Source: Candidatus Moranbacteria bacterium GW2011_GWC2_40_12
GTDB taxonomy: Bacteria > Patescibacteriota > Minisyncoccia > Moranbacterales > UBA11712
Assembly (NCBI GenBank): GCA_000995965.1
Contig: LBYD01000001.1
Location: 76,923-140,922 of the forward strand
Length of the DNA stretch: 64,000 nt
Direction of reading: 5' to 3'
In this document: in pieces, positions 10 through 45,487 of the stretch
Layout of the letters: every line of letters begins with the position of its first letter
Numbering within the stretch: the stretch's first letter is position 1
Made by a program: the position numbers and the translations under genes
Notes under the pieces: generated by a model
What the model saw: only the letters and a program-made list of their open reading frames with translations
What the model was told of the DNA's origin: nothing
Databases searched by the model: none

Positions 10-1347
10 GTGAATTTTGATGCTTTTGTTCCGGTTGTCACTTTTGCCTGCGTGGCAACGCGCCATGATGTTTTTGATCGGTTCAAATTAAGCGAGAATT
101 TCCTCGAGGAATGCCAGGATACGGATTTTTGCCTGCGGCTTCAAGAATCCGGATTTAAAGTCCTTTATAATCCGGAATGTGAAATATATCATCTGGAAAG
201 CTCTTCGCGCGACTTCCGAAAAGGGGAGGCGGACAGACAGCTTTTGAAAAAAAGATGGGGAAAAAGAATTAATGAAATAATCACCGCCGGTAATCAAAGA
301 GTGAAATTCGAACCGGAAGAATACAAAAATTCCGTCACAATTGTCCGCGACGACGGAATTGGCGATCTTTTGATGGGAGTGAGCGCTTTCAAGAATTTTC
401 GCGAAACCCGCCTTCGCCAAGGCCCGCCTGCAACGATGTTGCAACTTCGGGCAGGCTTCGGCGGGCAAGAATATCCGGAAAGAAAATTGATCCTCGCAAC
501 CTATGAGCGCAACATCGAAATGATGGCGGGCTTTGGCATTTTTGACGAATTTATTCCGATTCCAAATGGGAAAAAATATTCCCCGCTTCCGATCCCGACA
601 GGAGAAGGAGGGAAAATATATAATTTCATTGACCTTGAAATGAGCTTCGGGCCGATTTGGGGCAATGTGAAAAATGACAACAAGATAAACCGCCATTTCG
701 TTTATTCACGAAGAATGGGGCTGGATGAGAATTTCAAGTTAGTCTCGATGCCGGATTATCCGGAGGCGAGAAAAAGAGTGGAGAAACTAATTACTAAAAT
801 AGGTGTTGATATATCCGCCAAAGGCGGATCCGCCTCTGGCGGAAATCAAAAGTTTGTCGTGTTCAATCTTGGTGCCTCCAACCCCGCCCGGAGCTGGTGG
901 GGGCCGTATTATCCGAAATTGATCGAAGCGGTTGAAAAAATGGGATTCACGCCGCTTATCCTGGGAACGAAAGACAGCGAATATTATAAAGGCGAAAAAG
1001 TAGTAAATCTGGTCGGGAAAACAAAAACAATCACGGAATTTATCGAAGCCCTGAAACTTGGAAAATACGTGATTTCCGCTGACACTAGCGCAACCCACAT
1101 CGCGGCTCTCGCCGGAATTCCGTTTCTGGCCATTTTCACCGGCGGAATGACACCGGAATCTCGTCTCAATCTTTACGAAAAATACGAAGTGCTGGCTCCG
1201 CCCAAGAGCCTCAAATGCTATCCCTGCTGGGATGAAGGCTGCAAAGATTTGTCGGTCCGATGGAAAAAAGACCCCTGCCGGCTTCTGATCAAACCGGAAG
1301 AAGTGATTGATAAATTCAAGAAGCTTGTCGAAAAATATCCAAGATAA
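10..1347 (+). CDS. Two-domain glycosyltransferase, 5-prime partial (continues upstream of window): C-terminal part of a GT2 domain fused to a GT9 (heptosyltransferase-like) domain
   Basis: The ORF is open to the window edge. Segment DTDFCLRLQESGFKVLYNPECEIYHLES looks like a GT2 C-terminus. Later, FVVFNLGASNPARSWW...GKTKTITEFIEALKLGKYVISADTSATHIAALAGIPFLAIFTGGMTPES matches the GT9 ADP-heptose transferase signature. It lies adjacent to the ADP-heptose genes. Confidence 0.6.
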   Translation: MNFDAFVPVVTFACVATRHDVFDRFKLSENFLEECQDTDFCLRLQESGFKVLYNPECEIYHLESSSRDFRKGEADRQLLKKRWGKRINEIITAGNQRVKFEPEEYKNSVTIVRDDGIGDLLMGVSAFKNFRETRLRQGPPATMLQLRAGFGGQEYPERKLILATYERNIEMMAGFGIFDEFIPIPNGKKYSPLPIPTGEGGKIYNFIDLEMSFGPIWGNVKNDNKINRHFVYSRRMGLDENFKLVSMPDYPEARKRVEKLITKIGVDISAKGGSASGGNQKFVVFNLGASNPARSWWGPYYPKLIEAVEKMGFTPLILGTKDSEYYKGEKVVNLVGKTKTITEFIEALKLGKYVISADTSATHIAALAGIPFLAIFTGGMTPESRLNLYEKYEVLAPPKSLKCYPCWDEGCKDLSVRWKKDPCRLLIKPEEVIDKFKKLVEKYPR

Positions 1348-1369
1348 TATAAAAATTAAAAAAATAAAA

Positions 1370-2275
1370 ATGTGTAACAAAAAAAAGTTGCTTATTCTTT
1401 TGGTAGCGGCTTTTTCTTTCGTGCTTTTCTCAAATAAATCATTTGCCGTCACATTTGCCGTTATGGGCGATACACAAAGTTTCGAAGCTGGAAATGCGAA
1501 TGGTGCTCTGCAAAAGGCGGCAAAAAAGATAAAAAGAAAGAAAATCCGGGCGGCAATTGTAATGGGGGATTTGAAAAGTGACTGCTATAATGACACTACT
1601 TGCCTTTCATATTTCAACAACTGGAAAAGCGCGATATCTCCGATTTATAGAAAAACATATCCGGTGATGGGGAATCATGACAGGACGTATTCCGGGGCTG
1701 ACGCCATTTGGCAATCCGTTTTCAAGCTCCCGACCAATGGTCCAGAAAACTACTCCGAATTGTCATATGCTTTCAACAAGGGCAATTCTCATTTCGTTGT
1801 TCTGAACAGCTCCAAACCGGATAGCTATATCATTGATTCAAATCAGCGCAATTGGCTGGAGCAAGATCTTTCAAGAAATAGAAAAAAGAATATATTTGTT
1901 TTTTATCACATGCCGGCATTCCCGGTAAGTTCGCATATTGGGAGCGCGCTCGATCTATATCCAGAAGAACGAGATGCGCTGTGGAAAATTTTAGACCGAC
2001 ATAAGGTAACAGCTGTTTTTTCCGGACACGAACATCTTTTTGTTAGAAAAAAAATTGATTCGTCCGTTTTTTTGAGCGCGTCAAATTCAATTTATCAGTT
2101 CACGGTTGGGAACACAGACACATCAGCCTATCCTCCGCCACAAGAGGGCTCAAGTGAATACTATTATCTCGACAAACATTTCTTGATCGTAAAAGCGAAA
2201 AACAAAAAAATAACTACCGAACTATATTCAGCGGTTACTGGAAAAAAAATCAACACTTTTTCGTTCAAGAGATGA
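1370..2275 (+). CDS. Secreted calcineurin-like metallophosphoesterase
   Basis: ATG at 1370 follows an A-rich leader. N-terminal hydrophobic signal is KKLLILLVAAFSFVLF. Motifs GDTQ, GDL, GNHD and GHEH are typical of the metallophosphatase fold. Confidence 0.65.
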   Translation: MCNKKKLLILLVAAFSFVLFSNKSFAVTFAVMGDTQSFEAGNANGALQKAAKKIKRKKIRAAIVMGDLKSDCYNDTTCLSYFNNWKSAISPIYRKTYPVMGNHDRTYSGADAIWQSVFKLPTNGPENYSELSYAFNKGNSHFVVLNSSKPDSYIIDSNQRNWLEQDLSRNRKKNIFVFYHMPAFPVSSHIGSALDLYPEERDALWKILDRHKVTAVFSGHEHLFVRKKIDSSVFLSASNSIYQFTVGNTDTSAYPPPQEGSSEYYYLDKHFLIVKAKNKKITTELYSAVTGKKINTFSFKR

Positions 2276-2761
2276 TTATTTCTCTGCTTTTATTTTTTCT
2301 TCGATAAGCGAAGTCGAAAGGGGAATATCTTCTTTGGGAACGAGGAAAAGCTCTCCGCCATACTGGTCGAGGACTTCCGTTTCGACGCATTTTGTTCCGT
2401 ATTCGGCGCTGTTGGCGTGGACATCCGGGCGGATTTTTTCGAGCCACGAGTTGGGGATGAGGTCGTCGAAAAGAAAAACATAGTCCACATACATTATCGC
2501 CGCTAGAAGCTCTGCCCGGTATTTGTCGGGAATGATGGGCCGTCCCGGCTTTTTTTTGTATTCTTTCACGGACTTGTCGCTGTTCACGCCGACAATCAGA
2601 AGATCTCCTCTTTCTTTCGCTTTTTTGAGAAGGTCGATATGTCCGGCGTGAAAAAGGTCAAAAGAGCCGTTGGTTGTGACAATTTTTTTGCCTTCCTTTT
2701 TCGCTTCAGCGGCGATTTGCAGAATTTCGTCAAGCGATTTTATTTTTTCTTTGTGATTCAT
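2276..2761 (-). CDS. hldC: D-beta-D-heptose 1-phosphate adenylyltransferase (stand-alone HldE domain II / RfaE2)
   Basis: TNGSFDLFHAGHIDLL is the HxGH nucleotidyltransferase motif of the cytidylyltransferase-like family. Size is 161 aa. It sits in a cluster with gmhA, gmhB and the heptose kinase. Confidence 0.75.
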   Translation of the reverse strand: MNHKEKIKSLDEILQIAAEAKKEGKKIVTTNGSFDLFHAGHIDLLKKAKERGDLLIVGVNSDKSVKEYKKKPGRPIIPDKYRAELLAAIMYVDYVFLFDDLIPNSWLEKIRPDVHANSAEYGTKCVETEVLDQYGGELFLVPKEDIPLSTSLIEEKIKAEK

Positions 2762-2768
2762 ATGCTTT

Positions 2769-2801
2769 TACGAATTACGAATCAATTACGAATATACGAA
2801 T
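2769..2801. repeat. (TACGAAT)4 tandem heptamers in the 5-prime leader of hldC
   Basis: tTACGAATTACGAATcaatTACGAATaTACGAATtat begins 7 nt upstream of the hldC start codon (minus strand). It is a member of the window-wide ATTCGTAAT motif family. Confidence 0.6.
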
Positions 2802-2803
2802 TA

Positions 2804-3352
2804 TTATTTTTGCACAATAAATTTGGCCGCGTCGAGCAGGTCTTCGGCGATATATTCTACGTCCGTCTTGTGCTTTTCATCCGAGCCGCCCTTACCCGTT
2901 TTGACGAGGATTGATCTGATCCCGAAATTTTTTCCGCACTTCACGTCGGCCCATTTGTCTCCGATCATCCAGGAATTCGCATTGTCAATTTCAAAATCTT
3001 TTTCGGCCTGTTCAAGCATTCCAGGAGCAGGCTTTCGGCAATTTGAAGTTTTCTTGTATTTTCCAATTCCTTCGGGATGGTAGGGGGAAAAGTATGTTTT
3101 CAGAATTTCTATTCCGTTTTTTTTGAGTTCTTTTTCAACGTGGTTGTTGAAATTCCAAAAATCTTTCTCCGCATAATAGCCCCGGCCGATGCCTGACTGG
3201 TTGGTGATGATAATGAAATGAAATCCGTTTTGTTCAAGAATTTTCAGGCCGGGAATCACGTTTTTTTCAAATTCAAAATCTTCTATTTTATAAACATAAT
3301 TATGGTCGACATTGATCACCCCGTCGCGGTCGAGGAAAATTATTTTTTTCAT
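2804..3352 (-). CDS. gmhB: D-glycero-D-manno-heptose 1,7-bisphosphate phosphatase (HAD superfamily)
   Basis: HAD motif I is IIFLDRDGVIN. NCRKPAPGM and GDKWADVKCG are the GmhB/histidinol-phosphatase-like motifs. Confidence 0.75.
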   Translation of the reverse strand: MKKIIFLDRDGVINVDHNYVYKIEDFEFEKNVIPGLKILEQNGFHFIIITNQSGIGRGYYAEKDFWNFNNHVEKELKKNGIEILKTYFSPYHPEGIGKYKKTSNCRKPAPGMLEQAEKDFEIDNANSWMIGDKWADVKCGKNFGIRSILVKTGKGGSDEKHKTDVEYIAEDLLDAAKFIVQK

Positions 3353-3397
3353 AAGTTATCTGAAATTCAATGCCGGGGGAACCCCAACATTGAAAGT

Positions 3398-4435
3398 TTA
3401 CTCTCCGATCCAATCCAGAAGTTCTTCTTTCGTCACCACTGAAGTCCCGAATTTGCGGATGGCGACCTGCGAAGCGGCAGTGGCAAGCTCCAATGCTTCG
3501 TGCATTTTCGCGCCGCCGGCATAGGAAGCGATGAGCAATGCGGCGACTGTGTCTCCGGCTCCGGCGATGTCGAATTGCTCTTCGACTTCCCGGGGCCGGA
3601 CGAAATAGGGTTCTTTTCGGGGTTCGAAATAAACCGTTCCTTTTTTTCCTCGGGTGATGAAAATATGGATCGGAATTTCTTTCTGAATTATGCTCGCGAT
3701 CTCGATGATTTCGCTGTCCGTGGTTCCGTCTTTGTCAAAACCACTCATTATTTTGGCCGTTTCAACTGATTCCACCCGGTTGGGTTTCAGGAAGAACAGT
3801 TCGGGATTTTTGATGAAGCTTTTGAATTTCACGAAGGTGTTTTGTTTGAGATCGGCGAAAATTGGAATATTTTTTTCGCTTGAAATGTCAATAATTTTCT
3901 TGAAAACTTTTTCCGTGAGAAATCCCTTTGCGTAATCATGGACGGAAATAACAGCCGGGTTCATTTCTTTGGCAAGGCTTTCGAGATATGCCGATATCTC
4001 ATTTTCTTTTTCCTTGTTCAAGGGGCGGGTATCCTCCATATCTACCCGGGCAACATGCTGGGTAGTGGTTTTTATCGCCTTCACCCTCAATTTGAGGGTT
4101 GTTTTGCGGTCCGCATCAAGGCTGAAATGGGTGATTATTCCGCATTTTTTGTATTCTTCTTCCATCACTTCTGTATATCTTATTCTTCCTTTTTCACCAA
4201 TGACACCAACGAGGTGCGGCGTGAGGCCAATCGCTGCCATGCAATTCGCCGCGTTTCCGGCGCCCCCCGGAAAAAATTGCTCATCCTCCACCGCGATCAC
4301 GGGAACAGGAGCTTCCTGGGAAAATCTTTCGACGGGGCCGGTGAGATAAGCGTCAAGCATCACGTCGCCGCAGGCCAATACTGGCGCGTCTTTAGCATTT
4401 TTCAGGATTTTTTTGGCTCTTTCTATTGTTAGCAT
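3398..4435 (-). CDS. hldA: D-beta-D-heptose 7-phosphate kinase (PfkB/ribokinase family; stand-alone HldE domain I / RfaE1)
   Basis: PfkB signatures are GGAGNAAN and DIAGAGDTVAA (DTxGAGD). Length is 345 aa. It lies in the heptose cluster between gmhB and gmhA. Confidence 0.7.
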   Translation of the reverse strand: MLTIERAKKILKNAKDAPVLACGDVMLDAYLTGPVERFSQEAPVPVIAVEDEQFFPGGAGNAANCMAAIGLTPHLVGVIGEKGRIRYTEVMEEEYKKCGIITHFSLDADRKTTLKLRVKAIKTTTQHVARVDMEDTRPLNKEKENEISAYLESLAKEMNPAVISVHDYAKGFLTEKVFKKIIDISSEKNIPIFADLKQNTFVKFKSFIKNPELFFLKPNRVESVETAKIMSGFDKDGTTDSEIIEIASIIQKEIPIHIFITRGKKGTVYFEPRKEPYFVRPREVEEQFDIAGAGDTVAALLIASYAGGAKMHEALELATAASQVAIRKFGTSVVTKEELLDWIGE

Positions 4436-4549
4436 AAAAATGGAACGAAAATTCTAAACCCCAAGCTCAAAATTCTAAACAATTTCAAAATTAAAACGGA
4501 CGAAATTCAAAAGAGTATTGAAAACTTAGATTCTGGCATTTGGAGTTAT

Positions 4550-5125
4550 TTAGGATTTACTGAAGAAATATTTCTCAACTTCTTCGCAGATCCAGTGGAT
4601 TGCCATCAAGTGGATTTCCTGAATAAGGGGTATATCCCTTGACGGAATAATAATCGCGGCATCAGCCAAATTTTTCATTTTCCCCCCGTCATTTCCAAGG
4701 AGGGCTATGTTCTTGACCCCTTTCTTTTTAGCAGATTCCATGGCTTTTAGGCAATTGCCTGAATTTCCGCTGGTGCTGATAGAAAACAGGACATCATTTT
4801 CCCCTCCCAAACTTTCGACGAAGCGGAAAAATATGCCCTCGTAGCCGTAATCATTTCCGACGGCGGTCGTCGTTGCCAGATCGTACAAAGATATCGCGGG
4901 CAAAGCCGGCCGGTCAAAAGCAAAGCGTCCGACAAATTCTCCGACCATATGCGAGGCTTGTGTTGCGCTTCCTCCGTTCCCGCAGGTCATCAACTTTCCT
5001 CTGTTTTCTAGCGATTTGACAATAGTATTGCGCGCAGATTCGAGAGAATCCAGAAAAACTTTGTCTTTTGCCAGCAAATTTTGCAATTCGGCCGATTGCT
5101 TGAGCTTATTTTGCATTGATTTCAT
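4550..5125 (-). CDS. gmhA: Phosphoheptose isomerase (SIS domain)
   Basis: SIS-domain motifs are CGNGGSATQASH and ISTSGNS. Size is 191 aa. Confidence 0.8.
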   Translation of the reverse strand: MKSMQNKLKQSAELQNLLAKDKVFLDSLESARNTIVKSLENRGKLMTCGNGGSATQASHMVGEFVGRFAFDRPALPAISLYDLATTTAVGNDYGYEGIFFRFVESLGGENDVLFSISTSGNSGNCLKAMESAKKKGVKNIALLGNDGGKMKNLADAAIIIPSRDIPLIQEIHLMAIHWICEEVEKYFFSKS

Positions 5126-5175
5126 ATTTACTGTATAATTATATCAGCCAAACATAGCTTTATTAAAACAAAAAA

Positions 5176-5925
5176 ATGGACAAAAGACAAATCAGCAGCG
5201 TGATTATTGTCGCGCTGGCGATCACTTTCATCGGAGCTTCAGTCGCGAGCTCGAAAATCAAGACGCTGAAGAAAATAAAGGCGGGAAGCATCACGAATCC
5301 CTATATTGCCGACGGTGCGGTGAATTCCGCCAAAATCCAGGATGGGACAGTTTCGAACGCCGATTATTCCGACAATTCCGTCACAACCGGGAAAATAGCG
5401 GATGGAGAGGTCAGCACGGACGATCTCGCGAATAATGCGGTAACAACAGGAAAAATTTCGGATGGGACGATCGCGGCAGGGGATTTGGCTGATAGCTCGG
5501 TGACTTCGGCAAAAATTTCGGACGGAGCTATTGTCAACACGGATATAAATTCCTCGGCGGCCATCGCCGGAACGAAAATTTCGCCAAATTTTGGAAGCCA
5601 GGATGTGACAACAACGGAAGATGTTAACGCGACAAACGGTGCCGGTAATTTCTTAAGAGTAACAGTCGGAGATACCCTTGCTGGAACAGGTGGCGGACTG
5701 TATGTCGATGACGAGCTTACCGCTAACGGACTTCAAATAAATCCTTCTGATGCGTCAACAGGTGACGCAGATTCAGCAACTACGCCAACCGATGAAACAT
5801 GCAATAGTAATAATTGGGGAACTTATGAATTTGTGGATGACACGGACAGTCCCGCTGGATGGCTGTGGATTTGCCAGCGATCCGGTCCCGATACCTATGC
5901 ATGGGTGAGAGTAAGCGGCCCTTGA
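5176..5925 (+). CDS. Membrane-anchored surface protein with about 9 tandem decapeptide repeats (consensus xSVTTGKIxDGxV), Ser/Thr/Asp-rich; candidate glycoprotein
   Basis: N-terminal TM anchor is VIIVALAITFIGASVA. Repeats of the form GAVNSAKIQDGTV, NSVTTGKIADGEV, NAVTTGKISDGTI and SSVTSAKISDGAI are visible. A strong terminator follows the gene. Confidence 0.6.
   Translation: MDKRQISSVIIVALAITFIGASVASSKIKTLKKIKAGSITNPYIADGAVNSAKIQDGTVSNADYSDNSVTTGKIADGEVSTDDLANNAVTTGKISDGTIAAGDLADSSVTSAKISDGAIVNTDINSSAAIAGTKISPNFGSQDVTTTEDVNATNGAGNFLRVTVGDTLAGTGGGLYVDDELTANGLQINPSDASTGDADSATTPTDETCNSNNWGTYEFVDDTDSPAGWLWICQRSGPDTYAWVRVSGP
5300..5580 (+). repeat. In-frame ~30-33 bp tandem coding repeats (about 9 copies) inside the surface-protein gene
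   Basis: The DNA repeats aaaaatttcggatgggacg / aaaaatttcggacggagct and similar units, encoding the KIxDGxV decapeptide. Confidence 0.5.
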
Positions 5926-5970
5926 TTTGTTTGATTTAATTCGATTGGAATTGGCTTGGTTATTCAAAAT

Positions 5971-6004
5971 AAAAAAGGCCCGATGCTTTATCGGGTCTTT
6001 TTTG
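5971..6004. terminator. Bidirectional rho-independent terminator between convergent genes
   Basis: aaaaaaGGCCCGAtgctttaTCGGGTCtttttt is a GC hairpin with an A-run on one side and a T-run on the other. Confidence 0.6.
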
Positions 6005-6005
6005 A

Positions 6006-6938
6006 CTATTTGTTATTGTTTTTCTGAAACCACTCGTATGTTTTCCTAATTCCCGTTTTGAAGTCGGTTTTTGGCGTCCATCTAAAATTCTCTTTTATTT
6101 TCGCGTAGGAAAGGCAGCTGGTTTTTTGCTCGCCGATTTTGGCTGGTCCGTGAACTTCTTTGAATTTTTTTCCGAAATACTTGTTTATTTCTCGGAATAT
6201 GCCGTTTACACTCGTTTCTTTGCCGGTGCTGGCATTATATATTCCTACTTTGTCGAATTTTTCAAGCGCCTGCAGATTTGCCGAAGTTATATCGTCAATG
6301 AAAATGAAGTCCCTCGTTTGTTTTCCACTTCCGTTGATTACGGGTTGCTTTCCATTCATCATCATGTGGAGAAAAATCGCAATTACATTTACTTCTCCAT
6401 GGGGGTTTTGCCGCGGTCCATACACATTCGGATAGCGAAGAGCGGCAAATTTCAGCCCGTGGACCTTGTTGGCATAATGCAAGAATTTTTCAACGGAAAG
6501 CTTTCCAACTCCGTAGGGAGAGACGGGCCAAGGCTCGACGGTTTCCGGAGTGGGGAGGACGCGCGTGTCGCCGTAGAGGGCACCGCCGGTTGACGAAAAT
6601 ATGAATTTTTTGACTTTGTATCGGCAGGCGAGTTCAATAAGATTCATGCTTGCCAAAATATTATTATTCCCTTCGAAAAGGGGATCGGCGACGGATTTTC
6701 GAAGGTCTATTTGCGCCGCGAGATGGAAAATGACCTCCGGTTTTTCTTTTTTGACGGTAGCTTCAGTTTTTTTGTGATTGGTGAGGTCAGCTTTGAAAAA
6801 TTTTGCCTCGGGATTGATATTTTTCTCAAATCCGGTGGAAAGATTATCAATCACCAAAACCCGATGCTTCTTTTCAACAAGAGCATCGACCAGATGCGAA
6901 CCAATGAATCCCGCGCCTCCCGTGACCAAGATTTTCAT
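6006..6938 (-). CDS. NAD-dependent sugar-nucleotide epimerase/dehydratase (extended SDR; GalE/UXS-like, HldD-like not excluded)
   Basis: The Rossmann motif VTGGAGFIGSHL is present. The catalytic YGVGK (YxxxK) and NVYGPRQ motifs are present. Confidence 0.8.
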   Translation of the reverse strand: MKILVTGGAGFIGSHLVDALVEKKHRVLVIDNLSTGFEKNINPEAKFFKADLTNHKKTEATVKKEKPEVIFHLAAQIDLRKSVADPLFEGNNNILASMNLIELACRYKVKKFIFSSTGGALYGDTRVLPTPETVEPWPVSPYGVGKLSVEKFLHYANKVHGLKFAALRYPNVYGPRQNPHGEVNVIAIFLHMMMNGKQPVINGSGKQTRDFIFIDDITSANLQALEKFDKVGIYNASTGKETSVNGIFREINKYFGKKFKEVHGPAKIGEQKTSCLSYAKIKENFRWTPKTDFKTGIRKTYEWFQKNNNK

Positions 6939-6989: not shown

Positions 6990-8582
6990 TTATTTTATCT
7001 TCCAAATGATTGAAATGGTTTTCGACTCGATATTTTGCGCGAGACCCCATTTTTTTTCAGACGGTTCCAGAAAATTGTTATCTATTTCAATTACATCGAA
7101 AGTCCTGCTTTTGACCAGATCGGTATACCAAGTTTTTTCTTCAGCGACGGGTCCCAGGATAAAGATGTTCTCATAGCCATTCTGGTCGATGTATTTCAGG
7201 TCATCTGCGTTAAAAAAATAGACGGCTTTTTTGCCAAAAAGAGATGTCATGGGATCGCTAAGAAGCGAGAATCCGCTGCCAGTGGCCATTCGATCGACCA
7301 AAATCAGATCATTCGGGCCGAATTTTTCGGCTATTTTTTCAATTTGGGGCAAAAGATCTCTATTTTCCGAAAGAGTGAGAAAGCGCCAGCTCACGACGAC
7401 GTTTGCCGTGATAAGGGCCGCAAGGGTGATATAGAGAAATATTTTGTGATAGAAAAACCGGTTGAGAAAATATATCGAGTAAAAAATCAGGATTGGAAAA
7501 ACGGCAAAAACGAACCGGCGCAGCATCCACGGGTCATCAAGAGAAATCATCGGTGAAATAAGATAGAAAAAAGCCGGAAAAGTGAGGAGTATTGGAATAT
7601 ATTCCGGCTTTAGCCAGTTTTTTTTCACTTTTTTTGCGAGCCAGCCGATTCCAGCGAGACCAAGAATGAGATAAGCCAAAATGTTATAGCTCAAAAACAC
7701 AGTCGCGAGATGCGAATACAGGCCAGATGAGGGTGCGGAATCTTTGGTTGAGTCGGGCAGAAAAGCTTTTGTGAAATTTTTGGCGCTGTCAGTCAGATCA
7801 TGATAATTCAGAAAAATATAGAGGGCAGAGAGCAACAATGTGGAAATTAGCAGATATTTTATGAAATTTTTTGAAAGCGGGATTGTATTTTTTCTGTTAA
7901 GGAAATAAATATAGCCGGCGGCAAGGAGATAAAAAACTATTCCCTCGATTCTGGTGAGCGCCGAAAGAGCGAAAAAGAGCAAAGAAATTTGCAGAAAGCG
8001 GTTATCCATATTTTTAGACGTTGGACGTCTAAAAGAAAGCAGAAAATAAATTCCCGCCCAGACGAGAAAAAGCATGAAGATTTCCGTGAGCGCGTATTTG
8101 GCAAACCAAGGGAAAGGAAAAAAAGTCGCGGCGATGAGAAACCCGAGAAGGGAAACTTTCTCGGAAAAAAACTGGCGAAGTGCGAGCCAAAATAATACCA
8201 GAAACAAAGCCAGGTGGAGGAAGTTGGCATACTGGATTCCCTTCAATCCCAACGCGGCATAAAAAACGGCCAGATAGGCGATAAAAGCTTTTGGGAAGCG
8301 GGTTATCAGCTTTCCATCCTTGGTATAGTCAAAACCGGGGAAGTTGAGGGCTCTGCCTTGCCCGTATTTTTGAAATAAGTCGTTTGATGAGGGAGCGGAG
8401 AAAACAAATGATTTGTGTTTTACGAGATCGATCGCGGCGGTTGCGATGGCGCCCTGATCTCGCCCCCCGAAAACAGTTGGAGTCGCGAAATAGCAAGTCG
8501 TGAAAGAAATAGCAAGAGAAATTGCGATGACTACGAGAAAATAATTCCTGTTTCCCTTTTTTTTGGGAGATTGGTGTTCCAT
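6990..8582 (-). CDS. Polytopic GT-C-type glycosyltransferase (PMT/ArnT-like, GT39/GT83-like) with C-terminal extracytoplasmic domain
   Basis: The start is placed at the ATG giving MEHQSPKKKGNRNYFLVVIAISL, since the longer ORF extends into a promoter-like region. More than 10 predicted TM helices. A GGRDQGAIATAAIDL loop-1 motif follows TM1. The gene is divergent from a GtrB-like GT2. Confidence 0.6.
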   Translation of the reverse strand: MEHQSPKKKGNRNYFLVVIAISLAISFTTCYFATPTVFGGRDQGAIATAAIDLVKHKSFVFSAPSSNDLFQKYGQGRALNFPGFDYTKDGKLITRFPKAFIAYLAVFYAALGLKGIQYANFLHLALFLVLFWLALRQFFSEKVSLLGFLIAATFFPFPWFAKYALTEIFMLFLVWAGIYFLLSFRRPTSKNMDNRFLQISLLFFALSALTRIEGIVFYLLAAGYIYFLNRKNTIPLSKNFIKYLLISTLLLSALYIFLNYHDLTDSAKNFTKAFLPDSTKDSAPSSGLYSHLATVFLSYNILAYLILGLAGIGWLAKKVKKNWLKPEYIPILLTFPAFFYLISPMISLDDPWMLRRFVFAVFPILIFYSIYFLNRFFYHKIFLYITLAALITANVVVSWRFLTLSENRDLLPQIEKIAEKFGPNDLILVDRMATGSGFSLLSDPMTSLFGKKAVYFFNADDLKYIDQNGYENIFILGPVAEEKTWYTDLVKSRTFDVIEIDNNFLEPSEKKWGLAQNIESKTISIIWKIK

Positions 8583-8593
8583 TGTATTTCTTA

Positions 8594-8622
8594 TTGACAA
8601 AAGTATAGTAATGTTATAGAAT
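8594..8622 (+). promoter_or_regulatory. Sigma-70-like promoter TTGACA-N17-TAGAAT
   Basis: ttattGACAaaagtatagtaatgttaTAGAATat gives a consensus -35 with exact 17-bp spacing to a good -10. It lies in the divergent region between the GT-C gene and the + strand operon. Confidence 0.45.
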
Positions 8623-8676
8623 ATAGTTTCAAAATTAACAAAAAAACAATAAATGAAAAGGGAGGCAGGCCGGTCA

Positions 8677-9111
8677 ATGAAAATAAAATATTCAATGAAA
8701 AGTTTGAAAAAGTTTCTGGCCAACGCTTTTTCCGGGGGAAATCCGGAAAAAATCCTCGAGGATGTCCATTGCGAGCTCACCCGGAGAAATTTCGCGGTTG
8801 AGAGGTATGAGGACGTTTCCGGGATGGGGATTCGGGGCAGTTTGGACATCTACCCATCGGTTCAGGTCAATGTCTATATTCCCTTCACTTCCGCGTGGGA
8901 GCTGCAGGCGCTTCTCTTCTTCGAGGAGGATGACCAGCTCGAATTGGTGAGCCAGGTCCCCGATTTCAAGGAAAAAATCCTTTTGAGGCGCTATTCCCTG
9001 CCAATTAATCCCCGGGAAATCGCCAGAGCTTTGAGCACGGACGCCCTGCTTCTTGGCGCATTGCTGGCAACTATTCTCAAGCGCCAGGAAATTGAGGCAC
9101 GGCATGAATAG
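8677..9111 (+). CDS. Hypothetical protein (144 aa)
   Basis: aagGGAGGcaggccggtcaATG is an SD-like site 10 nt upstream of the ATG. It follows the promoter above. The alternative reverse-strand ORF 8692..9150 is less protein-like. Confidence 0.3.
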   Translation: MKIKYSMKSLKKFLANAFSGGNPEKILEDVHCELTRRNFAVERYEDVSGMGIRGSLDIYPSVQVNVYIPFTSAWELQALLFFEEDDQLELVSQVPDFKEKILLRRYSLPINPREIARALSTDALLLGALLATILKRQEIEARHE

Positions 9112-9202
9112 GGAGCGGGGCGGAGCGCCATTGGCGTCTTTGCCCCCCAATTTTCAATCAACATTTTTTGCTATAATCCTGACTTTACGTTAACATAAAT
9201 AC

Positions 9203-10150
9203 ATGAATGAATCCAGTCAGAAACCATATATATCCGTGATTGTTCCGCTTTATGACGAAGAGGGGAATGTGAGAGAATTGCACCAGAAAATAGTCGAAGC
9301 CTGCCGGGGACTTGGCAAGACTCTCGAAATTATTTTCATCGACGATGGAAGCACGGACAAGACGAATGAAATTTGCCGCGCATTGAGCCCCCTGAAGCTC
9401 ATCACCTTTCGAAAAAATTTCGGGCAGACAGCCGCCTTTGACGCGGGGATCAAAAATTCTTCGGGCGAAATCATTATCACAATGGACGGCGATCTTCAGA
9501 ATGATCCGGCGGACATCAAGCTGCTATTGGATAAATTAAGCGAAGGATACGACGTTGTTGCCGGCTGGCGGAAAAATAGGCAGGATTCCTTTATGAAGAA
9601 TCTTGCCTCGCGCGCGGCCAATATTGCCCGAAAATTTCTCATCAACGACGGAATTCATGACAGCGGGTGCAGTCTCAAGGCTTTCAAAAGGGAATGTTTT
9701 GACGATCTGGATTTGTATGGCGAGATGCACCGCTTTATCCCGGCACTCCTCAAGGTGCAGGGGTTCAAAGTGGCGGAAGTTCCAGTCAGCCATCATTCGC
9801 GCAAGAGCGGGGTGACGAAATACAACTGGAAGCGGGGAGTAAAGGGAATCGTTGATATGATCTCGGTCTGGTTCTGGAAAAAATACGCCAATCGGCCTTT
9901 GCATCTTTTTGGAGCGGGGGGTCTTGGGATATTTTTCCTGGGAATTTTGTCGGGAGCGGCGCTGGTCACGGCGCGCGTTTTCTATGCCGTCCCGATGTCG
10001 AACAAAATCTGGCCGCTCATCGCTGTTTTCCTGGTCCTGATGGGAATCCAACTCTTCATTTTCGGTCTTCTGGCTGATATCGCGGTCAAGAATTATTATA
10101 AAACGCAGGGGAAGATGAATTATAAAATAAGAGAGATTATCGAGAATTAA
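9203..10150 (+). CDS. GT2 polyprenyl-phosphate sugar synthase (GtrB/ArnC/DPM1-like undecaprenyl-phosphate glycosyltransferase) with C-terminal TM helices
   Basis: The N-terminus begins ISVIVPLYDEEGN. The DxD motif IFIDDGSTD is present. GQTAAFDAG and ITMDGDLQNDP are characteristic motifs. Two C-terminal TM segments are predicted. Confidence 0.8.
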   Translation: MNESSQKPYISVIVPLYDEEGNVRELHQKIVEACRGLGKTLEIIFIDDGSTDKTNEICRALSPLKLITFRKNFGQTAAFDAGIKNSSGEIIITMDGDLQNDPADIKLLLDKLSEGYDVVAGWRKNRQDSFMKNLASRAANIARKFLINDGIHDSGCSLKAFKRECFDDLDLYGEMHRFIPALLKVQGFKVAEVPVSHHSRKSGVTKYNWKRGVKGIVDMISVWFWKKYANRPLHLFGAGGLGIFFLGILSGAALVTARVFYAVPMSNKIWPLIAVFLVLMGIQLFIFGLLADIAVKNYYKTQGKMNYKIREIIEN

Positions 10151-33508: not shown

Positions 33509-36091
33509 TTACGGCCTGGCTTGCAGGCTGTTGATTTTTTGGATTAAGTCCTGAATTTCGCTAAGAAGCACGGCAGGCGTTGTGTTCAATCTTTTGGCCG
33601 CTGCTATGCCAATTTTTAATTTTTCAAATCCGAGTATTGCAAGCAGTCTTATCTCAGATGGCTTTAGACGCTTGATCACTCCAGCGATTTCCGGTCTGAC
33701 GCCGTTCTTTTTCGGGTCTTTTTTTTCAAGCCTAAATTGAACAGCTCCAGAAAACTCGGGATCAAGGATTAAAGTATTGTCGTCTGCGAGCAACATAGGT
33801 TGCCACTTCTTGTTAATGCTCGGCGACCTTTCCGGTGGGACGCGAGGAATCGGCATTTCGGCTGCCGGAATAACCGGAGGCTCAATCGGGAAAATCGGCG
33901 TGCCGATCTCCGAAAAAAGCATCACAATCACTTGAGGCGGTTGGCCAAAAATAAACCTCCTTTCGCCGTCATTCCTTGTGTATGAGGTGCGAAGCGGCGG
34001 AACGCGCGGAACACGTATTTTGTCTTTCAGGATAACCGGAGGCTCAATCGGAAAAATCGGCGTGCCGATCTCCGAAAAAAGCATCTCGGTTATTCTTGGA
34101 GGATCACCGAAGACAAACCTTTTTTCTCCGATAATTTCCGTATCAGGAGATTTAGGCTTTTTGGATATGGCATTCTCCGAAACGACTTCCTTATCCTCAA
34201 AGGGTGGGTAATACCTTGGATAGCAAGCCGGCGGGCGCCGCGGCCTCGGACGATGATCCTGCGGATGCTCGCAGAGCGGAATTACAACATCCTCCACTTT
34301 TCCCGAACGCCAGTGTTTGGCGTTAAAAATTATTTCGAAATGTTGACGGTCAGGAAACGCGGGATAGTACGGATTTGAGCCCTTTTTCCTGCGATTTCCG
34401 TTAGCCGAACCCTCATCATAAAAGGATTTCAATCTTGTGACACGGGACGGATGCCGAAGTTTGCGCAGGGCTTTGGCTTCAATCTGCCGGATGCGTTCGC
34501 GCGTGACTTCGAAATCTTTATCATGCCCGACCTCCTCCAAAGTCATATCTTTTGCTTCCCCGATGCCGAAGCGCTTGCGAAGGACTTTTTCCTCGCGCGG
34601 CGTCAATGTGGTCAGCATCTTGCGGGTTTGGTCTGCCAGATTGAGACTGGCGACTGCCTCAAATGGAGTGGAAACTTTCTCATCTTTTATGAAATCGCCC
34701 AGAAAATCATTCTCATCTTCACCGACAGGAGTTTCGAAGGATATTGGTTCCTTCGCGATTTTGAGGACTTTCAGCACTTTCTCCAAAGGAAATTCCATCT
34801 TGTCGGCGATTTCTTCGGCAGTTGGCTCTCGCCCCATTTCCTGGACCAGATACCGCGAGGTCCGGATAAGCTTATTGATGGTTTCGATCATATGGACCGG
34901 TATGCGGATGGTGCGAGCTTGATCGGCGATGGCGCGGGTAATGGCCTGCCTGATCCACCAGGTGGCATATGTGCTGAATTTGTAGCCGCGCTCGTATTCG
35001 AACTTTTCCACGGCTTTCATGAGACCGACATTGCCTTCCTGGATGAGATCCAGGAATTGAAGCCCGCGGTTGGCGTATTTCTTGGCGATGCTCACCACCA
35101 GCCGCAGATTGGCTTCTACCATTTCCCGTTTGGCCTTGTGAGCTTTATACTCGCATTTTTCCAGTTTTTCCACAGTGGCCAGCAACTGGCCAGAAGGGAG
35201 ACCGATAATCTGTTCGTATCTTCGCAGTTCGTTGCGGGTTTTATTTTGCAGGTATTTCAGCTCTTCGAATCTCTCCGGTGCTAAGCCGGCCGGCAGCAGA
35301 ATTTCTGCTTCCTGTTTGGACTTCCGGACAATGTCCCTGAGCTTTGTTTCAGATATTTTGGCACAGGCGAACGCCGCATTTTTCTTGCGGATGAGATCGC
35401 GCGCCGCGGAGGCGATCACGCGCAAATCCTCGGCGATTGCCTGAAAATAAATCGGCTCGAGACGCAGTGCTTCGAAGCGATCAGCCAGACGCCGACGGGC
35501 CGCGACAATGGACCGCTGAATTTGATCAACTTCATCGCTGTCCGGCGGAAGGACTGCCAATCTTTCGCCCAGCAGGTTAATTTTTTGATATTCCGCCAAA
35601 AATCCGGAAATAATCCAAGAATTCCTGGATTTTCGATCTGCCGGATCCGTGTTCAGGTCTTCTTCGCCGAAGTCGTCGATTTTTTCTTCAGCCTTCGACA
35701 TTTTATAATTCGTTCCGTGTTTCAAGCCTTTGACGAAGTCGGCGACATTTCTCAATGAGTAAGGAATCTCAAAGAGGGTCGAAAAAAATTCTCTCTCGCC
35801 AGCTTCAATCCGTTTGGCAATCGCGACTTCCTGCTCGCGGGTAAGAAGAAGAGGAATTTCACACATATCTTTGAGATACAGGCGAACAGGATCGTCGAAT
35901 TTCATCGAAGCTTCTGTTTCAGCGTCTTTTTCTTGAAGTAGCGGACGTTCGTTAATCTCCCCTTCCTCGTTTGTTTCGTCGGCAAGATCCGATTCATAAG
36001 ATGATGAAAGCGTCCCGAAGTCTTCTACGGGTTCTCCGTTTGACAGTTGGTCAATCATAATATCCGTGACAGAATCGTCGTCGTAAGACAT
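33509..36091 (-). CDS. rpoD: RNA polymerase sigma-70 factor RpoD with ~300-aa C-terminal extension (tandem Pro-rich repeats plus a second region-4-like HTH)
   Basis: Acidic region 1.1 and [10 protein letters not shown] region 1.2 are present. Regions 2-4 are canonical ([27 protein letters not shown]; [31 protein letters not shown]). The reading frame stays open about 300 aa further. A strong SD aaGGAGGtga lies 7 nt upstream of the ATG. Confidence 0.85.
33790..34120 (-). repeat. 2 x 162-bp in-frame tandem direct repeat within rpoD 3-prime extension
   Basis: ccggaggctcaatcgg(g/a)aaaatcggcgtgccgatctccgaaaaaagcatc occurs at about 33874 and 34036, a period of 162 bp (54 aa). It encodes ...[30 protein letters not shown]... 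and ...[30 protein letters not shown].... Confidence 0.7.
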
Positions 36092-36527: not shown

Positions 36528-37679
36528 TCAACCCAGTAAAGATGAGTATATGTGAAGCGTTTTTTGCGCGGTTTTTTGCCAGGTGAATTTTTGGGCGGTA
36601 TTTCGTCCTTTTTCGATCAAATTGTTCCTTAGGTTTGCATTATCCAATATTTTTTGAATATTTTCAGCGAATGCGGCGCTGTTTTTCGGGTCGCAAAAAA
36701 GTGCTGAATCTTCACCTATTTCACGAAAAACTGGAATGTCCGAGCAGACAACCGGCGTGCCGGCGGCCATGGATTCGATAGCTGGAATTCCAAAGCCTTC
36801 ATAAAGTGAAGGAAAAACGAGGCACTCGGCCGTTTGAATCAAGGCGGGCTTGTCTTCTTCTTCAATCCAGCCCGGGAAAATCACTTTATCTTTAAGGTTA
36901 TTTTTGTCAATTGACTCATCAATTTTTTTGTCGAAATTATGGGCTTCCCTGTTTCCGGCCAGGATCAATTTTATGTCAAGATTTTTTATCGATTCAATAA
37001 GAACCGGAATATTTTTTCTTGGCTGCAAAGTGCCGATATGGAGGATGAATTTAGCGCCAGGTATCTGATATTTGGCCTTTACGCCATCAATTTCTCCAAG
37101 AGAAAATTTTTGGCTGAATTTTTCAAAATCAACGCCGTTATGCGTAAATTCCATTTTTTCCAGAGGGATTTTATAAAAATCAATGATATTTTTTTTCTCA
37201 CTTTCGGAAACAGTGATTATTTTGTCCGCCCGTTGAATGCTTCGCGGGAGGAGCGTTTTTAGGAAAAACAAATCGGATTTTTTGATATGCTGCGGGAAAA
37301 AATTGAATGAAATATCGTGAATCGTAAGGACTAATTTTATATTTTTCGGCAGCCAAAAGGGCGCGATATATTGGGTATGAAAAATATCCACCGGATTTTT
37401 TTTGAGATAATTCGGCAGATCCCAAAAATTCCACCAAAAGCGATTTAGCGAGTTTATGAAGATAACTCTGAAACTATCATCCAATTTTAGTTTATCAATC
37501 TCTATTTTCAGAGTACTGTCTTTTTCCGGATCGCGATCAGTGAAAAGAACATACTTGTTATCCGCAGCGGTCGAACCGCTACGATTGATTTTCGCGAGAT
37601 TTTTCACCAAATTTAAAAAATATACTTCATCACCAGTGCGTTTTTTGCCTATTGTCCGTATATCTATGCCAATTTTCAT
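36528..37679 (-). CDS. GT4 (GT-B fold) glycosyltransferase
   Basis: C-terminal LVFPSLYEGFGIPAIESMAAGTPVVCSDIPVFREI is a GT4 motif. Confidence 0.75.
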   Translation of the reverse strand: MKIGIDIRTIGKKRTGDEVYFLNLVKNLAKINRSGSTAADNKYVLFTDRDPEKDSTLKIEIDKLKLDDSFRVIFINSLNRFWWNFWDLPNYLKKNPVDIFHTQYIAPFWLPKNIKLVLTIHDISFNFFPQHIKKSDLFFLKTLLPRSIQRADKIITVSESEKKNIIDFYKIPLEKMEFTHNGVDFEKFSQKFSLGEIDGVKAKYQIPGAKFILHIGTLQPRKNIPVLIESIKNLDIKLILAGNREAHNFDKKIDESIDKNNLKDKVIFPGWIEEEDKPALIQTAECLVFPSLYEGFGIPAIESMAAGTPVVCSDIPVFREIGEDSALFCDPKNSAAFAENIQKILDNANLRNNLIEKGRNTAQKFTWQKTAQKTLHIYSSLLG

Positions 37680-37701
37680 AAACTCGCGAATTTAGAACGA
37701 A

Positions 37702-39360
37702 TTAAAACGAATCAGAACGGATGTTTCTTGTGCTTACAATTATTGCCAGTCCAAACCAAAATATTCCCATAAAAAGTCCCGCGTTAAATAAATTCGGGAC
37801 GATCAAAGAAGTGATTCCTAAAACCGTGAAGACACTCATCGCTTTTTCGAAATCATCTTTCACTACTGGACAGCCGAAAAACCGGTTCATCGGACAAATC
37901 GGCGAGATGCGCCGGAAAGCATAAATAAAAAGGTAGCCAAAAACAGCTATAAACGCCATCAATCCCAAAATCCCGCTTCCCGCCCAAATCTGAAGAAAAA
38001 CGTTGCTTTCGTTGAGGCCGGCTCCCCGCTGGTCAACGCCTATTTTTTCGGTAATCGTTCCGTATCCTATGCCCAAGAGCGGCGATTTTTTGAGGATATT
38101 CCATGACTCTCGATAAATTTCGCTTCGAGTTCTCACGTTCGGGTCTTTTCGGAAAGTTTCGGCGACAATTTTTCCCCGCAATTTATAGAAATTTATTTCT
38201 TCCAGATTGATATGCCGGCAATTATATTTTGGAAGTTCGCCAATATCTTCAATTGAATCGGGAATATCCGCGCTGTTTTCGCAAGCAATCGTGATTTTCT
38301 GCTCGCTGGTGGCGGTTGAGCGCGCCCGGTCAAAAATATCGAATTTTGAAAGTTTGCCGAAATGAACCGCCAATAAGGATGCAATTATAATCGAAAATAT
38401 TATCGCCGATTCCCTCAAGAATCCTTTCCAGCCGCCGACATATTTGCTGACGGCGCCTGTCTTGCGCGACGGCGCTAGCGCGAGAAAATAAAAAGTTATG
38501 ACAACGGCCGCTCCGATCCAAGCTGAACGCGAAAGGGTCAATATGAGCAGCGTTATATCGAAAAAAATAAAAACATCCAAAAACAAAACAATGTATTGTC
38601 TCGAAATAAGCAGCATCCTCTTTGACCGGAGGAAATAAAATATCAACGCGAGAAAAACCGCCAGCGCGAAAACAAGATATATTCCCAGCCAGTCTGGTTC
38701 GGCAAATGTGGAATTTGGCCGTCCGAACATTATCTCGAAAGATTTCGCGCCCAATTTGTCGGAAAAAACCTGATAAAATCCGAATAATATTGTCGTCAGG
38801 AATGAGATCATCAAAAAAGCGGATGTTTTCGCGAGGTCTTCGCAGTTTCTCAAGAAATTGCGGACCAAAAAATATAAAGCGATAAAAGAAATCAAAATAA
38901 GATTATTTTTGAGGGAAATAGATTTGTTCGAAGCGCCTATCAGCGCCAAAAAACTGAGAGGAACCAATGTCAAAATCAGCCAATCGATCCAGTTTGGCTT
39001 CAAGAATTTGAAACCTATCCGTTTGGAGATAAAAAGGATTATCATTGCCAAAATCAATATTCCTGCCAAAAATTGATATGGCCGCAGTTGAAACGGAATA
39101 TAGTTTCCGGTCAGGATCACATTTTCAAGAGAAATGCTGCCCACGAAAAGAAAAAATATCCAGCGGGGGCGGTAGAGCGCGATTAGGAGAGCCACCAGAG
39201 ACAAAAAAACAAAGTCCCCTTTTCCGAGCGGCAATTTGTTTCCTGCCGAAAGGGCTGCGGCAACCAGGCTCAAGACAAAACCAAAAACCCAAACCCAGGC
39301 GAGTTCTCTTTTGAATATATTTTTTAAAATTTTTACTGTATTTTTCGTGTTAACCATCAT
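37702..39360 (-). CDS. O-antigen ligase / O-antigen polymerase-like membrane protein (Wzy_C domain)
   Basis: At least 11 TM helices. The motif LTLSRSAWIGAAVVITFYFLA is typical of the WaaL/Wzy_C periplasmic loop. Length is 552 aa. Confidence 0.6.
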   Translation of the reverse strand: MMVNTKNTVKILKNIFKRELAWVWVFGFVLSLVAAALSAGNKLPLGKGDFVFLSLVALLIALYRPRWIFFLFVGSISLENVILTGNYIPFQLRPYQFLAGILILAMIILFISKRIGFKFLKPNWIDWLILTLVPLSFLALIGASNKSISLKNNLILISFIALYFLVRNFLRNCEDLAKTSAFLMISFLTTILFGFYQVFSDKLGAKSFEIMFGRPNSTFAEPDWLGIYLVFALAVFLALIFYFLRSKRMLLISRQYIVLFLDVFIFFDITLLILTLSRSAWIGAAVVITFYFLALAPSRKTGAVSKYVGGWKGFLRESAIIFSIIIASLLAVHFGKLSKFDIFDRARSTATSEQKITIACENSADIPDSIEDIGELPKYNCRHINLEEINFYKLRGKIVAETFRKDPNVRTRSEIYRESWNILKKSPLLGIGYGTITEKIGVDQRGAGLNESNVFLQIWAGSGILGLMAFIAVFGYLFIYAFRRISPICPMNRFFGCPVVKDDFEKAMSVFTVLGITSLIVPNLFNAGLFMGIFWFGLAIIVSTRNIRSDSF

Positions 39361-39673: not shown

Positions 39674-39684
39674 AAATTTCTAAA

Positions 39685-40812: not shown

Positions 40813-40905
40813 ACCATAATTATCATACGACAAATATGGCATCAAGGCAAACTAAAAGCTCGATTTTTTCGGCCGGCTGTGGTATAGTGATTTTGTGGTT
40901 TTTTT

Positions 40906-42018: not shown

Positions 42019-42044
42019 TCTTCGAGATTAGGAATCGCCAACGT

Positions 42045-45486: not shown

Positions 45487-45487
45487 T

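Follow-up and report, generated by a model that had tools for sequence, protein, structure and literature searches.

A 64,000-nucleotide stretch of the genome of Candidatus Moranbacteria bacterium GW2011_GWC2_40_12 (contig LBYD01000001.1, positions 76,923 to 140,922; the whole stretch is called the window below) carries, close to its left end, a compact set of genes predicted to produce a nucleotide-activated heptose, together with the gene of an uncharacterised two-domain glycosyltransferase (GT). The set comprises gmhA, a gene for an HldA-type kinase, gmhB, and a gene for an HldC-type nucleotidyltransferase, which lie contiguously on the minus strand (window positions 2276-5125) with gaps of 42-114 nt. 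All open reading frames (ORFs) described in a first-pass annotation of this DNA were recovered at their positions in an ORF listing of the window. Because the kinase protein matches one from Candidatus Moranbacteria bacterium GW2011_GWC1_45_18 at 100% identity and is carried by many groundwater metagenome contigs, including contig MFSI01000017.1 of GCA_001784895.1, the source is a member of the Candidate Phyla Radiation (CPR; Patescibacteria) from aquifer groundwater.

Family membership of the four enzymes was assessed by Pfam and NCBIfam model scans, searches of solved structures (Protein Data Bank, PDB) and alignment to E. coli HldE. The gmhA gene (4550-5125, minus strand) encodes a predicted sedoheptulose-7-phosphate isomerase of 191 aa that scores 198.6 bits against TIGR00441, narrowly below the cutoff of 209.45 bits, 82.6 bits against Pfam SIS_2 (cutoff 27), and 119 bits against the DiaA model. 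Upstream of it is a promoter-like site (5138-5166, minus strand; TTAATA-17-TGnTATAAT) that scores 10/12 in a consensus scan, includes an extended -10 element, and is a pattern match only. The adjacent gene (3398-4435, minus strand) encodes a stand-alone protein of 345 aa with a PfkB fold, a candidate heptose-7-phosphate 1-kinase of the HldA type. Its score against TIGR02198 (rfaE_dom_I) is 229.3 bits, compared with 70 for hexose kinase and 43 for ribokinase models; although this misses the TIGR02198 cutoff of 345 bits, no other family comes close. The top PDB match of the kinase is HldA of Burkholderia cenocepacia (4e84, 2e-24), with ribokinase at 3e-4, and it is 30% identical to domain I of E. 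coli HldE. Two of its segments, GDVMLDAY...SQEAPVPV and DIAGAGDT (with the GAGD anion hole), align with both HldE of E. coli and HldA of B. cenocepacia, and the block GDxMxDxY...(S)xEAPVPV is one that we take to be a signature of the heptose kinase family. In a rough neighbor-joining tree the kinase groups with HldA and HldE, far from E. coli RbsK.

GmhB (2804-3352, minus strand, 182 aa), a predicted D-glycero-D-manno-heptose 1,7-bisphosphate 7-phosphatase, passes the cutoff of TIGR00213 (GmhB_yaeD; 165.2 vs. 149.6 bits) and scores higher against the beta-type model NF006506 (172.8 bits, a narrow miss at a cutoff of 178) than against the alpha-type model NF050049 (144). The final gene (2276-2761, minus strand) encodes a stand-alone HldC-type nucleotidyltransferase of 161 aa. 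Its best family is TIGR02199 (rfaE_dom_II) at 136.7 bits, even though the cutoff of 181.5 bits is missed, and the model for glycerol-3-phosphate cytidylyltransferase (TagD) reaches 46 bits. HldC of B. pseudomallei is the top PDB match (5x9q, 6e-22; TagD 5e-9), and identity to domain II of E. coli HldE (residues 325-475) is 39%. The protein carries the HAGH form of the HxGH motif, as FHAGH, and a C-terminal STT-type motif, PLSTS. The first-pass annotation had read these genes as an ADP-heptose pathway cluster with split hldA and hldC, and both parts of that reading were upheld, with all four enzymes matching heptose-specific models far above generic ones and with the kinase and nucleotidyltransferase encoded by separate genes. 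The generic identities considered for the latter two, a ribokinase and a TagD-like cytidylyltransferase, are ruled out by the model scores, the ranking of PDB matches and the neighbor-joining tree. That four same-strand neighbours match four steps of one pathway, in an order conserved in dozens of contigs, is far beyond chance. The enzymes form a divergent clade, and their predicted function is drawn from best match and context.

At the left edge of the window, on the plus strand, are the 3' 448 codons of a gene for a GT2-GT9 fusion glycosyltransferase (1-1347); the first 638 nt lie beyond the edge, and the full protein of 661 aa was taken from identical contigs, which bears out the fusion described in the first-pass annotation. 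The N-terminus is a basic helical segment, and the layout is a GT-A domain (GT2; PF00535/PF13641) followed by a GT-B domain (GT9; PF01075, 43.2 bits, cutoff 22). An AlphaFold2 model of moderate confidence (predicted local distance difference test, pLDDT, 72.9) was compared with the PDB by Foldseek, which returned E. coli WaaF first, then a Veillonella GT9 protein (3tov), TibC and WaaC, with E-values from 1e-10 to 1e-8. Among these TibC has the highest sequence identity (17-18%, vs. 11-14% for the others). Motifs of E. coli WaaC and WaaF are conserved in the GT9 domain, including GD335, the catalytic Asp (GD13 in WaaC), NPAR510SWW, which corresponds to K192-x-W of WaaC (the (K/R)xW motif), and D574-T-S-x-x-H579, which corresponds to D261-T-G-x-x-H of WaaC (the DT(G/S)xxH motif). 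The WaaC residues in these motifs are presumably contacts to ADP-heptose. By its Pfam score, GT-B fold, and Asp and DT(G/S)xxH motifs the fusion is a member of CAZy family GT9 (Glyco_transf_9), and it misses both equivalog models tried (TIGR02193 for WaaC, 18.5 vs. 185.3 bits; TIGR02195 for WaaF, 30.5 vs. 134.6 bits). An invariant four-cysteine (Cys4) insertion, CxxCx4Cx11C (C619, C622, C627 and C639), occurs throughout the fusion family immediately ahead of the final C-lobe helix; it is absent from E. coli WaaC and WaaF and is modelled at pLDDT <50. The GT9 domain of this strain also contains two low-complexity insertions, RLRQGPPATMLQLRAGFGGQEYPE and SAKGGSASGGNQ (fusion residues ~347-371 and ~485-497; window ~100-180 and ~510-560), which are likewise modelled at pLDDT <50 and are absent from other aligned family members.

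The fusion family comprises more than 100 clusters at at least 47% identity, some members with methyltransferase domains in addition. When each species was represented by one genome, a scan yielded 22 loci, namely five labelled Moranbacteria or Patescibacteria, two labelled Bdellovibrionales with a Moranbacteria-type module, and 15 from Chlorobiaceae or deltaproteobacterial metagenome-assembled genomes (MAGs). All seven Moranbacteria-type loci (7/7) have heptose genes next to the fusion, and within 10 kb of the fusion in the Chlorobiaceae and deltaproteobacterial loci none was found, bar one distant HldC-like match in a Chlorobiaceae locus. In Chlorobiaceae the fusion adjoins a KpsF/GutQ-like protein with SIS and CBS domains and a Wzx-like flippase, and another Chlorobi-like contig with the fusion has genes of bacteriochlorophyll (Mg-chelatase) and an outer-membrane gene of the OEP family. 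A separate search of metagenomes anchored on the kinase gave 33 loci, 19 of them with enough sequence to evaluate, and the fusion lies within ~2 kb of hldC in 17 of the 19. The recurrent gene order is ArnC-like GT2, GT-C, GalE-like short-chain dehydrogenase/reductase (SDR), gmhA-hldA-gmhB-hldC, in some loci a metallophosphoesterase, the fusion, a UXS-like SDR and UDP-glucose dehydrogenase. In most diderms ADP-heptose for lipopolysaccharide (LPS) is made from genes sited elsewhere; the arrangement in Moranbacteria fits a fusion that travels with a dedicated heptose supply operon. This conserved linkage is the main reason for proposing that the GT9 domain uses a heptose nucleotide.

Several further observations concern the distribution of the module. 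The fusion is 50-59% identical between Moranbacteria and the Chlorobiaceae and deltaproteobacterial MAGs (L012-L018, L020-L024, L026-L031), while the heptose kinase is only 37% identical to the closest proteins from beyond the Moranbacteria-type clade; the comparison of these identities suggests that the transferase may have moved horizontally across phyla. Two MAGs labelled 'uncultured Bdellovibrionales' (L019, CAZFIH010000039.1, and L025, CAZIFD010000001.1) contain the complete Moranbacteria-type module, ArnC-like gene included, at 56-75% identity, and represent a CPR genome that was mislabelled or misbinned, or else a transfer of the module in its entirety. A Patescibacteria MAG (L008, 6046-7214) has a second, distant pair of GmhB-like and GmhA-like genes (33% and 29% identity) ~3-4 kb upstream of the fusion, and the same locus also has hldC adjacent to the fusion.

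The envelope context was surveyed in every ORF of at least 150 aa in the 64-kb window and in ~10 kb of flank. Across this span there were no matches to lpx, kds, waaA, lpt or bam. Envelope genes that are present in the window include those for LCP and TagA/WecG proteins, many GT2 and GT4 transferases, two GT-C proteins, a Wzy_C-like protein and a Wzx-type flippase. In the literature CPR bacteria are placed within a monoderm clade, and transmission electron microscopy under cryogenic conditions (cryo-TEM) of CPR cells reveals an S-layer and no outer membrane. The window genes and this literature together support the monoderm-like, non-LPS setting that the first-pass annotation had proposed. Its further suggestion that ADP-heptose might matter here as an agonist of the innate immune kinase ALPK1 was not sustained; the organism is an aquifer episymbiont without a vertebrate host, and ALPK1 sensing is an implausible selective context for a groundwater bacterium.

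Heptose nucleotidyltransferases of a single domain form an established class, in which the motif (F/L)xxGRSTT (STTR5), with Arg at position 5, has been reported to mark enzymes that also make CDP- and UDP-heptose. The C-terminal motif of the Moranbacteria HldC-type protein, KEDIPLSTS, lacks this Arg (the corresponding stretch is FEHDRSTT in HldC of B. pseudomallei and FEDGCSTT in E. coli). By this sequence rule ADP-heptose is the likeliest nucleotide product, and a CDP- or UDP-heptose product is unsupported under the same rule. The product is probably ADP-D,D-heptose, because no heptose 6-epimerase is apparent at the locus (none of the three SDRs compared there is HldD-like, a 349-aa SDR further left not being among them). 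In the proposed mechanism the four enzymes would work in the cytoplasm: GmhA would isomerise sedoheptulose 7-phosphate, the HldA-type kinase would phosphorylate the product of GmhA at O-1, GmhB would take off the 7-phosphate, and the HldC-type enzyme would add AMP. The GT9 domain of the fusion, a predicted peripheral membrane protein, would then transfer the heptose, and the GT2 domain would attach a second sugar, possibly Gal or GalNAc by way of the GalE-like epimerase, drawn from the UDP-sugar pool of the neighbouring GalE-like, UDP-glucose dehydrogenase and UXS-like enzymes. The acceptor would be a lipid-linked, non-LPS surface glycan, probably put together on polyprenol at the membrane's inner face, which after export would be anchored in the wall or S-layer, with LCP, TagA, Wzx, Wzy-like and GT-C proteins encoded in the same window.

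That the four enzymes provide a heptose nucleotide which the GT9 fusion uses for a non-LPS surface glycan is, on balance, considered the probable explanation, though well short of assured. The four steps from sedoheptulose 7-phosphate to a nucleotide-activated heptose are predicted by homology, and the link between donor and transferase by synteny, fold and motifs; the donor nucleotide, the D,D form of the heptose, the acceptor and what becomes of the product are what we infer. A number of observations weigh against this explanation. Three of the four enzymes (GmhA, kinase and nucleotidyltransferase) fall under NCBIfam equivalog cutoffs, and in the neighbor-joining tree the Moranbacteria kinases form a long-branch sister clade to all sampled HldA and HldE proteins instead of nesting among them, a position that makes a shifted kinase substrate possible. 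The GT9 half gave no significant sequence match to solved structures with a single sequence, the full profile or a GT9-only profile, and its donor specificity is deduced from fold, motifs and synteny, the model being of moderate quality. The fusion is missing from two of the 19 evaluable kinase-anchored loci, neither an initiating phosphoglycosyltransferase nor a dedicated exporter was identified beside the module, and the absence of lpx and kds applies to the 64-kb window and ~10 kb of flank and not to the rest of the genome.

Genes around the module bear on the supply of other sugars. The SDR encoded by 6006-6938 (minus strand, 310 aa), which lies directly upstream of gmhA in most related loci, is a real ORF, as first reported. 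The role of heptose 6-epimerase (HldD) considered for it does not stand, and a GalE-like UDP-hexose 4-epimerase is the better description (PDB 4zrm, 7e-88). It scores 298 bits to the UDP-glucose 4-epimerase of Thermotoga maritima, as against ~80 bits (~1e-22) to HldD structures, and 201 bits to GalE vs. 137 to HldD models; a His is aligned at the position of Lys178 of E. coli HldD, which we take to be the second catalytic base of that enzyme. A 316-aa SDR in the left flank is also ruled out as HldD, being UXS/ArnA-decarboxylase-like (UDP-glucuronate-decarboxylase-like). The GalE-like SDR probably supplies a UDP-sugar and has no part in heptose epimerisation. A calcineurin-like metallophosphoesterase gene with a hydrophobic N-terminus (1325-2275, plus strand; PF00149, 52 bits) is convergent with hldC and appears to be a variable passenger, being found in a few loci (L010, L044-L046) and missing from most others. 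Two conserved neighbours lie on the far side of the SDR: a gene for a GT-C-like polytopic membrane glycosyltransferase (6990-8582, minus strand, 530 aa as called; NCBIfam LA_3751/LA_3752 family, 61 bits) and one for an ArnC/PgfS-like polyprenol-phosphate glycosyltransferase of family GT2 (9203-10150, plus strand, 315 aa; NF007986 169 bits, NF047588 144 bits). They form part of an Arn-like set that surrounds the heptose module (window 6990-10150 and the left flank, L004 15132-17438 and L001 17688-18645). The set consists of UDP-glucose dehydrogenase, the UXS/ArnA-decarboxylase-like SDR, the ArnC-like GT2, the GT-C membrane transferase, a short polyprenol-phosphate-type GT2 (199 aa, AglJ/PpgS-like) and a 115-aa ArnE/F-like EamA protein. 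An aminotransferase is absent from this flanking set, whose composition suggests decoration with a polyprenol-phosphate-linked pentose or uronate on the outer side of the membrane.

The repeat protein reported beside the heptose genes (5176-5925, plus strand, 249 aa) is likewise a real ORF, with a hydrophobic helix at the N-terminus and a two-Cys domain at the C-terminus, and does not belong to the module. It contains ~11-residue I-x-D-G-x-V repeats similar to those of phage tail-fibre proteins, and at the DNA level Tandem Repeats Finder called no tandem repeat in its gene. The gene is equipped with a promoter-like site of its own; beside it lies a strong bidirectional terminator with a 16-bp stem (5970-6004). 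The gene sits between the SDR and gmhA in contigs of this strain only (L040; kinase-anchored loci); in other strains the SDR abuts gmhA with nothing between, and full-length relatives of the repeat protein occur in unrelated neighbourhoods. The protein is a separate, strain-specific, tail-fibre-like cassette outside the heptose module, and as a conserved target of heptosylation it is ruled out by its strain restriction, unrelated contexts and tail-fibre likeness. In a contig of a related strain (L068, from Logan SRR22387926) a repeat protein of 76% identity lies between a GalE-like SDR and fragmented CTP_transf_like ORFs, with no gmhA, kinase or gmhB called; the heptose operon may have decayed or been replaced there.

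Further features lie deeper in the window. A second envelope-glycan locus (36528-49530) contains four GT4 genes, a Wzx/MurJ-type flippase and a Wzy_C/O-antigen-ligase-like membrane protein, as well as a 627-aa protein that is weakly DUF1616-like, under the Pfam cutoff, with RtcB and thymidylate kinase genes scattered among them. A sigma-70 protein of 860 aa (33509-36091, minus strand), in which region 4 ends near residue 547, has an unannotated C-terminal extension of ~310 aa at the G+C maximum of the window (0.497). A weak fourth tRNA-like Rfam match (56729-56794, plus strand; 30.9 bits, barely over the gathering score) has no ARAGORN call.

The Moranbacteria locus can be compared with several known heptose systems. 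It has the four enzyme types of the Burkholderia-type split HldA/HldC pathway, in an identical biochemical order and with kinase and nucleotidyltransferase separate, and differs from split HldA/HldC systems in lacking HldD, the STTR5 Arg of HldC (present in Burkholderia) and an LPS context; relative to E. coli HldE the sequences are divergent (30-39% identical). The fusion has in common with the GT9 enzymes WaaC and WaaF, the latter being its top structural match, the GT-B fold and the GD Asp, (K/R)xW and DT(G/S)xxH motifs, but it has an N-terminal GT2 domain and the Cys4 insertion, and the Kdo2-lipid A acceptor of WaaC and WaaF is not expected in CPR bacteria. With the protein heptosyltransferases TibC and AAH it would share a GT9-like fold, use of ADP-heptose (D,D for TibC), a four-Cys insertion in the catalytic domain and a non-LPS acceptor, use and acceptor being predicted for the fusion. 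The BAHT family to which TibC and AAH belong is described as having an N-terminal beta-barrel, a beta-hairpin thumb, a Cys4 iron finger and a dodecameric ring, whereas the fusion has GT2 in place of the beta-barrel, a Cys spacing of CxxCx4Cx11C (C339, C342, C358 and C370 in TibC), and no autotransporter substrate at its locus. The first-pass annotation had likened the locus to the S-layer glycan of Aneurinibacillus thermoaerophilus, which is built of heptose-rhamnose disaccharide repeats. The likeness holds for the use of heptose in a surface glycan without LPS, and such a repeat would suit a two-domain GT; it does not hold for the pathway, since the Aneurinibacillus glycan is made by a separate GDP-alpha-heptose route, in contrast to the beta/ADP route predicted here from the PfkB-type kinase and HldC-type transferase. 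The Aneurinibacillus route employs a GHMP-type kinase, HddA, and a guanylyltransferase, HddC. The ADP-heptose pathways for septacidin and hygromycin B in the Gram-positive Streptomyces also operate in a bacterium without LPS, as would the one here, although they end in a secondary metabolite, and the Moranbacteria locus has envelope-glycan neighbours and no natural-product genes. A two-domain GT, with a methyltransferase in some relatives, recalls polymerases that build disaccharide repeats, a resemblance offered as a lead only.

The surface-glycan explanation must be weighed against other uses of the same genes. Heptose operon and fusion might merely be neighbours, in which case the nucleotide-activated heptose would be released or go to some other transferase, and a different nucleotide sugar would serve the GT9 domain. 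The great divergence of the GT9 domain, with its low WaaF score (30.5 bits at a cutoff of 134.6) and lack of PDB sequence matches, would allow this, as would the two loci that hold the operon without the fusion, and clustering alone is a weak argument where a glycan locus is large and mixed, holding many GTs alongside UDP-glucose dehydrogenase, UXS-like and GalE-like enzymes. However, immediate adjacency is kept in 17 of 19 loci over 52-100% sequence divergence, the residues that align with the WaaC motifs (presumed ADP-heptose contacts) are conserved, and no second GT9 was seen in the loci, so that mere proximity is considered unlikely. The principal rival supposes that the GT9 domain is a protein O-heptosyltransferase like TibC and AAH, which would act in the cytoplasm on a surface protein yet to be exported, the candidate targets being an S-layer protein, a pilin or the tail-fibre-like repeat protein. 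TibC ranks with the best structural matches and leads them in sequence identity, the invariant Cys4 insertion recalls the four-Cys iron finger of TibC, itself an insertion in the catalytic domain, a lipid A-Kdo acceptor is not expected in a CPR cell, and TibC uses ADP-D,D-heptose, in keeping with a locus without an epimerase. Yet the leading structural matches are the LPS-type WaaF and the Veillonella GT9 protein, the place of the N-terminal beta-barrel is taken by GT2, with the N-lobe predicted to have flanking helices, and a fused second GT favours assembly of a glycan chain. Moreover, no conserved acceptor candidate lies beside the module, the repeat protein being strain-specific, and the low confidence of the Cys4 region (pLDDT <50) leaves equivalence to the iron finger putative. 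This rival is accordingly held to be rather improbable. In its boldest form ADP-D,D-heptose and a GT9 with a Cys4 finger would heptosylate a Moranbacteria surface protein (S-layer or pilin), as a monoderm counterpart of autotransporter hyper-heptosylation, a proposal that is similarly doubtful; the fusion may have been acquired from, or be shared with, diderm lineages that hold the 50-59% identical fusions. A softer version would have a heptose glycan mimic the LPS-core sugars of Gram-negative hosts of these episymbionts.

Two other readings dispense with a heptose nucleotide or with a non-LPS setting. The kinase and nucleotidyltransferase could act on another sugar or polyol phosphate, for example in the manner of a glycerol- or ribitol-phosphate cytidylyltransferase for teichoic acid, in which case no heptose nucleotide would be made. 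Enzyme scores under the equivalog cutoffs and the long kinase branch outside the sampled HldA and HldE proteins speak for it, and TagA and LCP in the window hint at teichoic-acid-like polymers, but heptose models score 3- to 5-fold over the alternatives (137 vs. 46 and 229 vs. 43 bits), the PDB ranking concurs, and GmhA and GmhB, interleaved in the operon, have no role in teichoic acid precursors. Substrates of that kind are judged highly improbable. An ordinary LPS inner-core locus, with lipid A and Kdo genes elsewhere in the genome, is less credible still. It could draw on the occurrence of the fusion family in true diderms (Chlorobiaceae and deltaproteobacteria), beside the KpsF/GutQ-like SIS and CBS protein in Chlorobiaceae, and on an lpx/kds search that covered the window and flank and not the whole genome. 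The source, however, is a Moranbacteria MAG of the CPR, which is treated as a monoderm clade and in which cryo-TEM has revealed no outer membrane, the 64-kb window and ~10 kb of flank have LCP and TagA and no lpx, kds, waaA, lpt or bam gene, and the fusion lies far under the WaaC and WaaF equivalog cutoffs.

Heptose synthesis as such is not new to these organisms. GenBank already names the proteins 'RfaE bifunctional protein, domain I', 'Bifunctional protein HldE', 'D,D-heptose 1,7-bisphosphate phosphatase' and 'putative phosphoheptose isomerase'. Moranbacteria belong to the class Paceibacteria in GTDB. ADP-heptose biosynthesis in that CPR class is mentioned in passing in one paper, a literature search found no study of the use of heptose in CPR or Patescibacteria, and non-LPS uses of heptose are known from other bacteria. 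The pathway is thus a known and largely annotated one in an unusual host, and the modestly new element is its conserved linkage to the uncharacterised GT2-GT9 fusion; the advance lies mainly in context and in corrections to the first reading.

The most likely use of the heptose is in a non-LPS surface glycan. The cell coverings of CPR bacteria are poorly known, and the surface is the interface through which an episymbiont attaches to its hosts. A dedicated heptose operon tied to a single bifunctional transferase would provide a concrete marker sugar for the CPR surface, one that could be traced by chemical probes or mass spectrometry because heptose is rare outside LPS. As a structural-glycan case it would join the few non-LPS uses of the ADP-heptose route, and it brings to light an uncharacterised family of GT2-GT9 fusions common to CPR bacteria, Chlorobiaceae and deltaproteobacterial MAGs.

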